From the IMG/VR virus record IMGVR_UViG_3300028186_000155: a stretch of DNA of 64,000 nt; one strand, written 5' to 3'. Positions 14,053 to 56,337 of this stretch are shown here, piece after piece. The position numbers and the translations under genes are program-made. Origin of the DNA: a virus. Taxonomy: Duplodnaviria; Caudoviricetes. A model generated the notes under the pieces. It was given only the letters and a program-made list of their open reading frames with translations, was not told the origin of the DNA and searched no databases. Position 1 is the first letter of the stretch. Every line of letters starts with the position of its first letter.

Positions 14053-14281
14053 TGCGCACCACCTTGCGCGACCAGAACAACAGGGCCACCATGGTGCCCT
14101 GAATGATGGTGATCAGGCCGTGAATTATCAAAAGTAGCCAGCGCGTTTCGTTATCAGCGGCCAAGGATTCCGCACGGAGGAAACAGATGCTGGCAATCAT
14201 CAGCAAACCCATCATTATCGCAATGGGCCATACGTTGTGCATTACAGCTTTTGCCACGCCTTTTTGTCGTTCGTTGTACAT
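14033..14281 (-). CDS. small membrane protein (2 TM)
   Basis: two hydrophobic helices. Confidence 0.7.
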   Translation of the reverse strand: MYNERQKGVAKAVMHNVWPIAIMMGLLMIASICFLRAESLAADNETRWLLLIIHGLITIIQGTMVALLFWSRKVVRSGQGKL

Positions 14282-14988
14282 CAGTAAGCCCCTTCGTGCG
14301 GTGGCAGATTTTGCAGGCTCAGGGCACGCACAGCGGCTTCACGTGCGGGCAGCGTGCGGGTCCAGATGATCTTGCCGGGATCGGTGAACATTTTCGCCTG
14401 TTTCAGGAAGCCGATTTGCAATTCGATTGCGTCGGCCACGTCCACGTTCATTTCTTCGCACAGGTCGAACATGACGTGTTGCACGCAACGCGGTTCACAG
14501 CTTTCCATCAGGTCGGCATCGCGCAGCACTTTTTCCATCAAATTTTGCGGTGGGTTCGGGAAGCCGTGCGCAAACTCGGTGCAGCGGATCATGTTTTCAA
14601 TCCGGCCCAACGAAACACCGCCGAAGTAATCTTGCACGCACTCTGCTTGCCGTAGCCCGTGGATAGCGATTTGGATATTTTTGCTATCGGGACCACCACC
14701 GGTATGGCCGAAATCGTGGAACAGCGCGGCGCACAACGTTTGCGAAATTTCGTGACGCAGGCGCCAGCCCATTGCGGCAAACAATTCGAGGCAGCGGTGT
14801 GCCACACGGATGCAGTGATCGACGTTGTGGTACGGCTGGTGCGTGTCGAATTGCGGCTTTTGCACATACTCGAAAATCGCACCCATTTTGTATTCGTCAA
14901 TCGCGGCCTCAAACATGGCACGGCGATAGGTAGCGGCCACGTCCAGTTCAGCGTCCAGAACTGCTACGGTTTTTTCACTGTACGACAT
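14281..14988 (-). CDS. HD-superfamily phosphohydrolase, PDEase-like
   Basis: YHNVDH, AALFHDFGHTG, DADL. Confidence 0.85.
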   Translation of the reverse strand: MSYSEKTVAVLDAELDVAATYRRAMFEAAIDEYKMGAIFEYVQKPQFDTHQPYHNVDHCIRVAHRCLELFAAMGWRLRHEISQTLCAALFHDFGHTGGGPDSKNIQIAIHGLRQAECVQDYFGGVSLGRIENMIRCTEFAHGFPNPPQNLMEKVLRDADLMESCEPRCVQHVMFDLCEEMNVDVADAIELQIGFLKQAKMFTDPGKIIWTRTLPAREAAVRALSLQNLPPHEGAY

Positions 14989-15006: not shown

Positions 15007-15210
15007 TTATTTGCCTTTTTGCCCGGCTGTGTAAGCTGCGCGCATCACCATGAACATACCCAACATCAGGATGCACATAATGGTGCCCATTGCCTTGTGC
15101 GCACGGCCCTTGGAGAAATCGATCATGCAATCGACCGCCATCCCGATAAGGCCAACCCAGCACACATGCCACCAGCCAATGATCGGCAATTTACTCAGCA
15201 GCTTTTGCAT
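15007..15210 (-). CDS. small membrane protein
   Basis: two hydrophobic segments; tiles operon. Confidence 0.65.
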   Translation of the reverse strand: MQKLLSKLPIIGWWHVCWVGLIGMAVDCMIDFSKGRAHKAMGTIMCILMLGMFMVMRAAYTAGQKGK

Positions 15211-16147
15211 TCTTTTTGGCCTTCAATTCTTTTTCGTAACCGGCGCCGATGTGCTCCAGCCGTTGGGCCGTGCCTTTCTTGTCGTGCCATTTGTTGTGCT
15301 TCATTACGCGATTGACCGCTGCTTTGTGGTCGTATTTCTTTTCGCGCTCTTTGGTGTACAACTTGGTCAGCAGATCATCCGGGTTGTACCGATAAATATG
15401 CGCTTCGTCCCACACGATGAATTTCCGTTCCAGATCGAAATCGAAATGGTGGTCGCTATTGATTGGTGATCGAGGTTTGGTGCGCACCACACGCATAGGA
15501 TTTCGGGGCAAAGAATCGCAGATGAACCGTTCCATATTTTTCATCGAGGCTTCCATGTCAATGGAGTCCTCCAGACACACGGTAAACGGCTTGCCCAGTT
15601 CTGCCAGTCGTTTGTATACCTGCAATTGATGCGCATACATGGGCGGACGGCCAGCGCTGTAAAGCGGCAATCCGCCGCTCAAGTAACCGCCGGGAAGCAG
15701 GCCGGGATCGAAACCCATAATCGGAATGCGTGGCTCGGATTTTACACCCAGTCTCTCGCGAATCCATTCAAGGCTGTTTGCAAATTCTTGCGCCATTTTT
15801 TCACACTCCACATTGGTGCCTTGCACAGGGTGATTGCGCAGGAAACTGAATGGGCCGTCGTCAATTTCGCTACGGTGGCCGACGCAATCCCACATGCCGG
15901 TTTTGCCCGCGCCTTTTGGAATGTTCATGGTTTGCCATTGCCGTGGACGGGACCGGGCGAAGAGGCGTTCCCTAGCTTGCCAGTTGGTGCGGGCAGGAGG
16001 TTGCCAGCGATAATCACCAAACACCACCATGTTGCGTATACGATCCCACAGGGCTTTGGCTTCGGGTGCATTCAGTTCCATCGGGGTTTTACCGATCAGC
16101 CCAATGTAATCGACTGCCCGGAAATCACGATCATGGTTTTGTTCCAC
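15191..16147 (-). CDS. hypothetical protein with scattered NTPase, nuclease and polymerase-like motifs
   Basis: NIPKGAGKT, NHPVQGT, IMGFDPG, YAHQ, IVWDEAH. Confidence 0.75.
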   Translation of the reverse strand: MEQNHDRDFRAVDYIGLIGKTPMELNAPEAKALWDRIRNMVVFGDYRWQPPARTNWQARERLFARSRPRQWQTMNIPKGAGKTGMWDCVGHRSEIDDGPFSFLRNHPVQGTNVECEKMAQEFANSLEWIRERLGVKSEPRIPIMGFDPGLLPGGYLSGGLPLYSAGRPPMYAHQLQVYKRLAELGKPFTVCLEDSIDMEASMKNMERFICDSLPRNPMRVVRTKPRSPINSDHHFDFDLERKFIVWDEAHIYRYNPDDLLTKLYTKEREKKYDHKAAVNRVMKHNKWHDKKGTAQRLEHIGAGYEKELKAKKNAKAAE

Positions 16148-16747: not shown

Positions 16748-16926
16748 TACAACACCTTTTGCAGAATTTGTTTGATGATGTGAACAGTTGCGAACATGCC
16801 GACCGCCATGTGCATCGGGGTCAACTGGTGCCAATAGGTTTTGGTGCGCCAGCCGTGGAACAGGTAGAAGCCCGCGAAGCTATACATGCCGTACAGCAGC
16901 CACCGCCAGATATCCCAGTCATCCAT
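16747..16926 (-). CDS. 59-aa membrane peptide (not in ORF track)
   Basis: MDDWDIWRWLLYGMYSFAGFYLF...; fills the gap with overlaps at both ends. Confidence 0.65.
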   Translation of the reverse strand: MDDWDIWRWLLYGMYSFAGFYLFHGWRTKTYWHQLTPMHMAVGMFATVHIIKQILQKVL

Positions 16927-17446
16927 GATAATAAAAATCCATGCGCATCTGGCTATGGTTCACGCACAGGTCGATTATTTCAGAGCGCTTTTTGCCTTTG
17001 AAGCTATCTCGGAATTCTGTGAGCATGCGGCCCATCGCGTCTGCACCTTTCCCATCGCGCCCGGTGCCCCAGTCCTTATCCCAATCGGCTTTGTGCACCA
17101 ACCGCCCTTTGGTTTCCAGTAGGGCTAACAGGCGGATAGGGTTTTGCAAATACGCTTCACGAATCGCGATTTTCATCGTGTCGTAACGCTTCGATTTTTG
17201 ATCCTTGCGTTCCTTGCCCTTCGCCTTGGGGCCGCCGAAATGTTTGGCCTTGTAGGGATCAAAGGAATTTAGGATTTTGGTGCGCAGTTCTTTTTCGCTC
17301 GGGTCCAGCGAATAAAACTGGTACATGTGTTCGATGGATTTGAACAGCCGTTTCTTGTAGAAAAACGGCGAGGGCCACATCGCGCTCCACATCGGATTTT
17401 CATACGAGTTAAATTCGATGATCGGTACAGTCGTTTTCTTCGCCAC
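16919..17446 (-). CDS. NADAR (YbiA-like) family protein
   Basis: S..WPSPF, SIEHMYQ, P..AK..G, QNP..L..LLET, D..WG.G.DGKG...MG.ML...R. Confidence 0.9.
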   Translation of the reverse strand: MAKKTTVPIIEFNSYENPMWSAMWPSPFFYKKRLFKSIEHMYQFYSLDPSEKELRTKILNSFDPYKAKHFGGPKAKGKERKDQKSKRYDTMKIAIREAYLQNPIRLLALLETKGRLVHKADWDKDWGTGRDGKGADAMGRMLTEFRDSFKGKKRSEIIDLCVNHSQMRMDFYYHG

Positions 17447-17637: not shown

Positions 17638-18387
17638 TCAGTCACCACCGCCGCCACCGCCACCGGAATCACCGCCAGAATCGCCACCGCCGCCCCAGCC
17701 CCCGGAACGGTCGCTAGTGCTAGGCGAATCATCATGGCGCGAAGGCGTATAGGACGGCGCAGGGGCCTCATGGCGCGTTTCTGCCATAGGTTCGCGGTAT
17801 CCACGCGTTTCTGCCATAGGTTCGCGGTATCCAACCGAGGGCTGGTGCAACGCGTTGCCGGTGATTTGCTCGCGCTGTTCCGGCGTAACCTTCAGCGTGT
17901 GCGTTTCTACGCTGGCGCGCCGGTTGCCCACTGTCAGGTCGCCAGGGTAGCCCTGTGCACGCTCTAGCGCATCGTCGTAAACACCGTTGACGTTTTGCGT
18001 TACCGCAATGTGCGTTGCCATCAGAATTGCAGAATCATCTGGCGGCGTGCTTTGGATTTGACCGCTGCGGTATTGCTGGCCATAACGCGCCACCTTTTCC
18101 GCTAGGTGACGTTCCGGGTGCTGGACCGGCTGGGGCTGCTCGCGCTGCAATCGGCTCAGACGGTCCGTCACTTCGAAATATTCGCGGCGCACCGAATTGA
18201 TTTCGTTTTGCAGGCCTTCGATTTGTTTGTTCTTTGCCGCCAGTTCGCGGTTTACGCGCAGCAGTTCAGCCGCTTGTGATTCGTAGCCCAGTGCCAGCAG
18301 TTTGTAGTGCGACTGGAACTCGCGGAAACGGCGGGTGCCGAACAGCTTGTCGAACCAGTAAAAATTACGCGGTTTTTGGTGATCCAT
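17638..18387 (-). CDS. coiled-coil protein with Gly/Ser/Asp-rich tail
   Basis: GAGGA SD before MDHQK; ends GGWGGGGDSGGDSGGGGGGGD. Confidence 0.8.
   Translation of the reverse strand: MDHQKPRNFYWFDKLFGTRRFREFQSHYKLLALGYESQAAELLRVNRELAAKNKQIEGLQNEINSVRREYFEVTDRLSRLQREQPQPVQHPERHLAEKVARYGQQYRSGQIQSTPPDDSAILMATHIAVTQNVNGVYDDALERAQGYPGDLTVGNRRASVETHTLKVTPEQREQITGNALHQPSVGYREPMAETRGYREPMAETRHEAPAPSYTPSRHDDSPSTSDRSGGWGGGGDSGGDSGGGGGGGD
17774..17833. repeat. perfect 30-bp tandem duplication (GYREPMAETR x2)
   Basis: cgcgtttctgccataggttcgcggtatcca twice in a row. Confidence 0.95.
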
Positions 18388-18401
18388 CAGTTTTCCTCTG
18401 C

Positions 18402-19289
18402 TTATTGTGCGCAATCATCTTGATCATCATCGTCGCATTCTTCGAGGTCGTAGCCGTAGCCAGCCTCTGCGAAATAATCCTTGCTGATTTCGTCTTGTTC
18501 GGTCAGTCCGTTGAGGTGATCAACGAACAGTTTGGTCCAGTTTTCGAACTTCACACCCGGATAGGTTTCGTACAGCTTTTGGGCCGCAACTGGCGGAATG
18601 AAATCGACGCCTTTTTCACGATTGCCTACCGTCACTCCGTCTTTCAGACGCAGACGCCACGCGATAGCCAGATGCAGACGGCCTACGTTGTCGCTATTGT
18701 CGAAAATCAGGCCTTCGAAATGCAGGGTTGCCAAATCCGCCAGATCATCCAGCGTGGCAGTCAGCCGTTCTTTCGCCGTGCCTTCTGCCCGGTAGGCGCT
18801 GAATTTTTCACCGTGAACGAAGAACGTCATTTCTTCGAATGCTTCGCGCATGATGTTTTGCAGAGAAGTTTCCAGCAGGTTCGGAATACTGGTATTGCGG
18901 TGTGTTACAGGGTCGCGCAGATAACGCACGTCCACCGCGTCGAGGTGGCCGCCCGGCATGCCCGAACCTTTGCCTTGCAGATCGGATTCGCCGTTGCCTT
19001 CACGTGCACGCATGTAGGCGTTCAGTTCCGGCAGGTAATGCGGCGTACCAGCCTGCTCTACCGTGAAGTAGTTCAGCCATTGCGCGTAATCGCGGTTGCC
19101 TTTGAACGATTCGCCCCAGTGCAAAGATTCGTCAAGGTCTTCGCGCTGGCCAATGATGAACCCGCGACGAACCAAACCGGAGAATTGTTCCCAGTCCACT
19201 TTTACGAAGCCGGTTTGACCCATGCCGAGTTGCGGAATGTCACGCAGAACGGTGCGGCGAATCGCGCCAATGAATTCTGGATATTTCAT
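18402..19289 (-). CDS. Nudix-fold phosphoesterase (YmaB/COG4112-like)
   Basis: Y.R....GES.L.G..S...GGH, REAFEE, D..VG.LH, ENW. Confidence 0.8.
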   Translation of the reverse strand: MKYPEFIGAIRRTVLRDIPQLGMGQTGFVKVDWEQFSGLVRRGFIIGQREDLDESLHWGESFKGNRDYAQWLNYFTVEQAGTPHYLPELNAYMRAREGNGESDLQGKGSGMPGGHLDAVDVRYLRDPVTHRNTSIPNLLETSLQNIMREAFEEMTFFVHGEKFSAYRAEGTAKERLTATLDDLADLATLHFEGLIFDNSDNVGRLHLAIAWRLRLKDGVTVGNREKGVDFIPPVAAQKLYETYPGVKFENWTKLFVDHLNGLTEQDEISKDYFAEAGYGYDLEECDDDDQDDCAQ

Positions 19290-55329: not shown

Positions 55330-55616
55330 TATGGTTGTCCCTTACTTTCCATGTGCGCAAGGCTCAGCTTAACTTCGGCCCATGGCATGAAAGTTGCGTC
55401 TTTCACGTCGGTGGAATCTTCCGGCATACGCACGATCAATTCGTAGCGGAACCCGTATTTGTCCGGGCAGTAACCGGCGATCAGGTTGTCGAAAACATCC
55501 GTGGAAAACATCGGAGGAAAACCTGCGTCGAGTAGCGCGTAGGCAATGGCGATGCAATCCGGGCCGGTCAGCAAGTCTTTTTCAATCGACCACGGCCACG
55601 CAAGATTCTCAATCAT
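55329..55616 (-). CDS. hypothetical protein (MIENL...)
   Basis: tiles operon. Confidence 0.65.
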   Translation of the reverse strand: MIENLAWPWSIEKDLLTGPDCIAIAYALLDAGFPPMFSTDVFDNLIAGYCPDKYGFRYELIVRMPEDSTDVKDATFMPWAEVKLSLAHMESKGQP

Positions 55617-56337
55617 TTTCATAGACCTTGAAATTTTCGTTGATGTAGCGAACGAAATCATAAATGCCTTCGTCGCCGTCGAATTCGATGTTGATCCAGT
55701 ATTCGTTCTGGTGTGAACCGTATTCCAGACACGGTTTAGATTTGGCGCGGCGTGCCAGTGCTTCGGGTTCTTGCGTGAACACGTGGTGCACCAGCCAATG
55801 GATCAGATCCGGGTGTGCGTGAACACCGCGAATTTCCAAACCAACTTTGTCACGCTGCACAATCGTTGGCCAGAATTGCGGGCGGCCATTTACCAGACGC
55901 TGTTCGATCAGTTTACGCGGGTACGCCATGTAACCATGCAGCGCCACGACTGGCACCCCACCGTCAACCTCGCGGTAGTCACCAACGGAGCGGCCCAATT
56001 CACAATCGAAAATGTGATTGTCTTCAGAGTAGGCAAGGCGATCAATCAGTTCCTCGCCAACACCGAGGCCACGGAAAATCGAATGGCATTGCTCGGTGAT
56101 TTCGTCGCCTTTTATGAAGTCGCGAACGTCGAACACTTTAGGCCCATAGGGTTCTGGCAAATTGTCATAGGCCACAACATCCATTTGCTCATAACCACCA
56201 ACAAACGCCACGTACCACCCAGTTTTGCGCTCGCTGTTCGGGTGGCCATAATACGCTTTGCACACGGTGCCTTGCGTGGTGGTTACGATGTAGTGGCCGT
56301 ATTCTTCAGGCTCACCAAATTTCCATTGGGCAATCAT
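55609..56337 (-). CDS. DUF551-like N-terminal domain protein
   Basis: W....PEE...YIVT...VVAY..LPEPY. Confidence 0.6.
   Translation of the reverse strand: MIAQWKFGEPEEYGHYIVTTTQGTVCKAYYGHPNSERKTGWYVAFVGGYEQMDVVAYDNLPEPYGPKVFDVRDFIKGDEITEQCHSIFRGLGVGEELIDRLAYSEDNHIFDCELGRSVGDYREVDGGVPVVALHGYMAYPRKLIEQRLVNGRPQFWPTIVQRDKVGLEIRGVHAHPDLIHWLVHHVFTQEPEALARRAKSKPCLEYGSHQNEYWINIEFDGDEGIYDFVRYINENFKVYEND

Follow-up and report, generated by a model that had tools for sequence, protein, structure and literature searches.

A recombining accessory gene of Lu11-like jumbo phages carries pieces resembling replication-enzyme motifs and may act as bait for host defence proteins

Results

The P0001 locus and its family

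The window, that is, the whole 64,000-nucleotide stretch of viral DNA that was analysed, comes from a 195-kb fragment of a jumbo-phage genome of ~314 kb, related to the Pseudomonas phages HRDY3 and Lu11. Positions 15191-16147 on the minus strand hold a genuine open reading frame of 318 aa (P0001), which opens with a GTG start codon, has a GAGG site upstream and overlaps the adjacent genes at both of its ends. The gene is found among small accessory genes, shortly downstream of a NADAR-domain gene (16919-17446, minus strand) and upstream of an HD phosphohydrolase gene (14281-14988, minus strand), and the adjacency to NADAR is kept at all homolog loci that are long enough to show position. NADAR proteins reverse ADP-ribosylation, and the two flanking genes together hint at a counter-defence neighbourhood. 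A scan for promoters and terminators gave results at chance level, and no paralog of P0001 was found in its own genome fragment.

Several other reading frames were noted in the window and in related phages. At 17638-18414 (minus strand) a 258-aa ORF carries a coiled coil, a short direct repeat and a Gly/Ser-rich tail. Near the equivalent locus of a related phage, a 160-aa ORF (L354:1657-2139; G005:115657-116139, plus strand) has a Walker A-like start and ranks just under true DnaB/SF2 helicases in HMM scans, and is possibly another helicase fragment. A conserved 150-aa ORF (L009; G000:C1:111416-111868, plus strand) matches P-loop templates (KaiC P=1e-5) and is probably a small nucleotide kinase or ATPase, and a probable large terminase (L010:16141-19041; G000:C1:140138-143041, minus strand) is interrupted around Walker A by an intein-like insertion (Pfam Intein_splicing E=0.001).

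P0001 is one member of an orphan family that occurs in Lu11/HRDY3-like jumbo phages. Full-length searches with P0001 returned nine homologs, and a profile of the last 69 residues (the tail-only search) returned 31 proteins of 259-387 aa in six lineages, none of which (0/31) contains a Pfam domain. The cultured phages Lu11 (gp291, among the 31) and HRDY3 (XDJ14978.1) both carry the family gene. Sequence searches of Pfam, PHROGs and the PDB gave zero matches for any family member tested, no homolog was found in the bacterial and archaeal genomes searched, and the ESM Atlas returned only unnamed clusters, with TM<0.35 for the whole of P0001.

The P0001 gene is an accessory gene of one locus that evolves fast, its ends constant and its motif-rich middle exchangeable. 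The tail (aa 253-318; 15191-15391, minus strand) defines the family, is basic (18 K+R against 10 D+E) and is the most conserved part of the protein, with an identity of 0.54 across lineages. AlphaFold predicts three helices for it at a pLDDT of 80. In a structural search its best hit (Z 6.4, rmsd 3.6 over 66 residues) fell within the helical-bundle background, and its viral Foldseek matches at E<0.02 were a family member and a 324-aa protein, which is the length of Lu11 gp291. The middle is poorly folded in the AlphaFold model, as the initial annotation had anticipated: from a six-sequence alignment the mean pLDDT is 44 and only residues ~256-317 are confident, a result which, the alignment being shallow, does not prove disorder.

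The pieces of the middle region

Short pieces that resemble signature sequences of DnaB, RecA-type ATPases, SF2/SNF2 helicases and PolA make up the middle. All six motif strings picked out by the initial annotation are present at the residues it assigned to them, and a further piece, absent from its list, precedes them. This N-terminal module (aa 12-44; 16016-16114, minus strand) starts with DYIGL and resembles, in the DnaB of the clade itself, the Walker B (H2) motif with the helix that follows it (profile P 0.0025-0.009 for lineages A and C), with an identity of 0.64 across lineages at aa 12-19.

The Walker A-like piece (aa 74-83; 15899-15928, minus strand) had been called terminase-like, a reading that we replace with an SF2-helicase-like one. 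It is homologous to an SF2/SNF2-helicase-like stretch of lineage C, in which the Walker A-like piece follows a Q motif at SF2 spacing; that stretch matches ResIII at P=6e-4 and the clade's own SNF2 helicase over 40 columns at P=0.003. The piece lies near the end in lineage D and is absent in lineage E. The broader idea of a terminase or packaging origin is not supported either: in every lineage the clade's own TerL is unmatched at motif level, and neither Pfam nor PHROGs links P0001 to a large terminase. The PolA-like piece, NxPxQG (aa 105-111; 15815-15835, minus strand; motif p=0.006), stands before the GG..G block in lineages A and B, after it in C and near the start in D, and matches to PolA reach P 0.004-0.008 in lineages B and D.

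The largest piece is a DnaB/RecA/KaiC-like block (aa 140-197; 15557-15730, minus strand), the alignment of which reaches back to ~aa 103. It comprises a strand, a GG..G motif, an xHQ piece in place of the P-loop, a helix and a strand ending in LED, and it takes in the islands at 143-149, 153-168 and 170-174 that had been listed separately. The view of the middle as six separate short epitopes is consequently not supported for ~103-197, which aligns as one DnaB-like block, whereas the view of it as a patchwork of pieces from unrelated enzymes is. In lineage A the block matches DnaB over 99 columns (P=8e-4), RadA (P=8e-4) and KaiC (P=0.01); lineage E has no such block. The string IMGFDPG within it is ambiguous, and may represent either RuvC motif I or the first strand of the DnaB-like block. 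In P0001 alone it is RuvC motif I-like, and the clade's RuvC starts with a similar string; in the lineage profiles it coincides with the DnaB/RadA strand preceding the GG..G motif, and no RuvC match attains P<0.01. Two members of lineage C have a RuvC-like string and a DnaB-type strand in tandem.

An SF2 Walker B-like piece (DEAH, aa 243-250; 15398-15421, minus strand; motif p=0.007) follows, with P=0.005 in lineage A and P=7e-4 in lineage E; it is present in A, B and E and absent in C and D. Further pieces occur in other lineages, among them an SF2 motif VI located beyond the tail (P=6e-5), both motif A and motif B of PolA and an exonuclease-I-like piece; an HGYM piece may be PolB-like. Presence and order of the pieces in each lineage were scored with hand-written patterns and are descriptive only. 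Some clade-specific letters match the phages' own enzymes, namely DYIGLL (DnaB), WGPG (SNF2 helicase), the Trp after GG..G (RecA) and DYSA (PolA).

Joint significance of the motifs

Taken together, the motifs exceed chance. The initial annotation had cautioned that strings this short could match by accident, and for single motifs the caution is sound: against shuffles they are mostly not significant (best ungapped p for P0001: RuvC 0.01, ResIII 0.06, PolA 0.14, DnaB 0.26), and control genes score equally high in single-motif ungapped PSSM tests. It fails for the motifs jointly. In a panel of 33 replication-enzyme motifs, chosen after reading the initial list and hence partly post hoc for P0001, with windows selected automatically from family alignments and a cut-off of p<0.05, P0001 has 7 motifs, whereas 513 control phage proteins average 1.5 and only a true clamp-loader ATPase among them gets to 7. 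Three homologs have 7-8 each, and control motifs show no enrichment in P0001 apart from that arising via Walker A.

A depth-matched comparison, in which 70 families from the same phages were aligned at equal depth to eight enzyme profiles, singled out the P0001 family as the only one to match, at P<=0.011, both RecA/DnaB-type enzymes (P 0.003-0.005) and PolA (P 0.003-0.011). Lineage profiles, in which the majority of rows come from the tail-only search, reached P<0.01 against helicase, RecA-type and PolA templates in 18 of 55 tests, whereas no P below 0.05 came out of 45 tests on nine non-ATPase control families, with the caveats that the control templates are mostly shallower and that the DnaB, KaiC and RadA tests land on the same stretch. 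A pooled 13-sequence profile compared with 328 shallow families of the clade gave a weak signal, with DnaB third as the best relevant match (P=0.04) and RecA and PolA outside the top 25, because pooling lineages with different payloads dilutes the signal. Out of sample, homologs retrieved by their tails have textbook RecA/DnaB pre-Walker A strands, the SF2 motif VI and Q/DEAH pieces.

Absence of a complete active site

The initial annotation held that the motif order fits no single enzyme, and we reach the same conclusion: the motifs are non-collinear with any one enzyme, and their order differs by lineage. Its description of a patchwork from unrelated DNA-metabolism enzymes, as opposed to one ordinary ATPase, is also borne out, there being no complete active site and no Pfam match; the protein is thereby ruled out as a functioning enzyme. 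Against DnaB, RadA and KaiC the likeness is confined to one block of 60-100 residues and a separate Walker B-like piece (P ~1e-3), but the block is without a P-loop, the Walker B piece is out of order, and neither a Pfam match nor a fold is found. Where a RecA/DnaB-family ATPase would have an intact P-loop directly after the GG..G strand, P0001 has the xHQ-containing stretch, and its H2-like piece sits at the N-terminus, ahead of the H1-like block. Across the family, Q, Walker A, DEAH and motif VI pieces recall SF2 helicases (ResIII, SNF2), and NxPIQG, motif A, motif B and exonuclease-I-like pieces recall family A polymerases, but these are isolated pieces of 5-40 residues and never a domain. 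No member has motifs I, II and VI at the spacing of an SF2 domain, and in place of motifs A, B and C of a ~380-aa polymerase domain there are single pieces scattered over lineages. Because the tail-found homologs carry further or other pieces in other orders, a single decayed ancestral enzyme does not account for them.

Conservation, selection and shared DNA

Across lineages the six islands are better conserved than the remaining middle (0.29 vs 0.15, p 0.001-0.01), and for Gly/Pro residues alone the values are 0.52 and 0.24; within lineage A the difference is not significant. Conservation is absent from the Q-like piece at 170-174 (0.05) and weak in the PolA-like piece at its own position (0.15). 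The expectation that homologs would conserve only the motif islands is not borne out, since both the N-terminus (0.38) and the tail exceed them. In lineages C and E the invariant residues of the middle are largely the motif letters.

Ortholog identity is 33-35%, against ~80% for the NADAR neighbours, and yet dN/dS between homolog pairs (dS up to 1.3) is 0.22-0.48 for the whole gene and 0.27-0.50 for its middle, which reads as an arms-race pattern. Together with the conservation of the islands, these ratios support the view that the motif pieces are retained by selection. The family sits amid variable accessory genes and evolves fast under selection, as would be expected of a decoy-type gene.

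Blocks are exchanged by recombination, as in the homolog P0002, which has P0001-like ends and a P0007-like middle. Short identities also link the family to other genes. A 22-nt piece of P0001 (15911-15932, minus strand) is identical at 22/22 positions to a stretch of an unrelated small ORF in a related phage (G005:111401; blastn E=6e-4), whose contig is the only other one in IMG/VR to contain a 20-mer from it. This ORF, of ~84 aa (L353:16327-16578; G005:111327-111578, plus strand), looks like the C-terminal (H4) part of DnaB standing alone; in blast it comes closest to the clade's four DnaB helicases (E 0.3-0.6), and in HMM scans it ranks directly behind them. Elsewhere in the window, a 32-nt piece (55915-55946, minus strand) is identical at 30/32 positions to a module of the homologs P0005 and P0006 (blastn E=1e-6) that P0001 itself does not have; it lies in an unrelated 242-aa singleton ORF (55609-56337, minus strand) with no orthologs in four related genomes. 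A blastn search for DNA-level matches of family genes to core genes found none, which rules out recent capture from core genes, implies that any captures are old or the likeness convergent, and leaves the case for self-origin resting on a few residues. Self-comparison of five genomes revealed, among the matches listed, no general pool of repeated motif modules.

Discussion

Our findings describe a selected gene built of hallmark scraps from at least four enzyme families that are reshuffled between lineages on a fixed tail, which constitutes a new architecture; searches of family libraries and of the literature found no multi-donor motif patchwork. The family gene is under purifying selection, undergoes block recombination, varies in content and order between lineages and encodes no complete active site. 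The question is what such a middle region might be retained for.

One account, chance resemblance in a Gly/Pro-rich orphan protein, draws on the mostly non-significant single-motif scores, on hhalign probabilities that are low in absolute terms and on a template panel picked after the initial finding had been read; it is largely refuted by the depth-matched null, the control proteins, the control templates and the new motifs in tail-retrieved lineages, and we consider it very improbable. Scarcely better placed is the idea that the protein still folds as a nucleotide-binding domain after much divergence and rearrangement, or is what remains of a single multi-domain ancestor. The DnaB-like block of 60-100 residues does exist, and the low pLDDT comes from six sequences only, but a block without a P-loop, a non-collinear and lineage-dependent motif order and the lack of any profile or fold match make this improbable.

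Two other explanations deserve more weight. The protein could be a dominant-negative or regulatory binder that docks on helicase hexamers, RecA filaments or polymerases of the host, of a rival phage or of the phage itself. The DnaB linker helix and adjoining strands form subunit contacts in DnaB and RecA-family oligomers, and the longest match, in lineages A and C, spans this linker helix and the adjoining strand; most other pieces (Walker A/B, Q motif, PolA fingers motifs), however, are catalytic and not interface elements, and the block is missing from lineage E, so that we regard such a role as unlikely. A somewhat stronger contender, doubtful though it is, holds that only the conserved ends, chiefly the basic tail, are functional and that the middle is a tolerant linker gathering gene scraps by illegitimate recombination; the motif excess would then reflect recognisable sequence and the sites at which divergent genes still share microhomology. 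The conservation of tail and N-terminus above the islands, a payload that differs wholly between lineages and the 22-32 nt pieces common to unrelated genes all speak for it. Against it stand the dN/dS of the middle at dS up to 1.3, the invariant middle residues of lineages C and E, which are largely motif letters, and a motif density that is probably far above expectation for random scraps of a 310-kb genome.

The explanation that we favor, with a probability of only about 0.4, is that exposed motif strings serve as bait for host defence proteins, on pieces of own-gene origin and with the tail as a tether. The pieces would have been captured long ago from replication genes of the clade itself and since rearranged at short homologies, and the basic tail would park the protein on nucleic acid or on a partner near replication. 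There, the exposed, unfolded motif strings may bind host defence proteins without activating them, the targets being defences that keep watch for the helicases, recombinases and family A polymerases of phages. The motif excess over controls, the pieces seen out of sample, the clade-specific letters, strong divergence at low dN/dS, block recombination and the DNA pieces common to unrelated genes count in its favor; the weak pooled profile, the lack of DNA-level matches to core genes and the mostly shallower control templates count against it. Binding of a piece to a sensor could equally well trigger that sensor.

Phage proteins that act by mimicry offer partial precedents for bait of this kind. 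DSAD1 is a phage mimic inhibitor directed against DSR2. ICP1 Gp145 is another, directed against DarT (PMC13728456). The mode proposed for P0001, binding a defence protein where its natural partner would otherwise bind, would be analogous, but these inhibitors are small, single-target and experimentally supported, whereas P0001 has no sequence link to them and its target is putative. T4 vs.8 and Ksap1/2 are stand-alone terminase-ATPase look-alikes that engage Avs2 (PMC13601566), and like P0001 they are accessory phage proteins that resemble part of a sensor-watched core enzyme. They are, however, whole folded single-donor domains that activate the sensor, while P0001 consists of short multi-donor pieces, is predicted to be unfolded and has no terminase part.

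What is known of the sensors themselves bears on the bait explanation in both directions. Avs19 targets family A polymerase (PolA) and Avs20 targets helicase/RecA (PMC13581612), and we counted the coincidence of these replicative targets with the donor classes of P0001 in favor of bait, together with the modelled binding of Upx to unfolded ATPase core strands (PMC13601566). Activation of Avs19/20 does not require catalytic residues (PMC13581612), and the strand binding of Upx is described as independent of sequence (PMC13601566); for these reasons no clear selection for catalytic letters is expected from either. Folded cores are enveloped, through broad fold-based interfaces, by at least 12 of the 14 Avs families (PMC13581612), so a decoy against Avs as now understood is not a natural fit. 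Avs3 recognises active-site residues of terminase and ATP (PMC13601566). A more natural partner would be an unknown or Upx-like protein that reads unfolded strands. Lit/gol and CapRel are precedents for defences that recognise a phage core protein by short linear stretches (PMC13581612); as described there these read capsid peptides, whereas the P0001 pieces resemble helicase and polymerase motifs, and our literature search found no description of a sensor of linear helicase or polymerase motifs.

In its widest form, the bait explanation would mean that Lu11-like jumbo phages maintain a dedicated, recombining display locus, which presents signatures of their own replication enzymes on a constant tail and saturates multiple sensors, a proposal that we offer tentatively and think rather unlikely as a whole. 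If true, it implies undiscovered sensors that read linear or unfolded catalytic-motif strands. The decoy idea is directly testable, as cultured phages carry the gene and cloned Avs19, Avs20 and Upx screens exist. A decoy of this kind would give these phages a one-protein counter to several pattern-recognition systems, and its pieces would amount to a map of the parts of phage replication enzymes that bacteria actually read.
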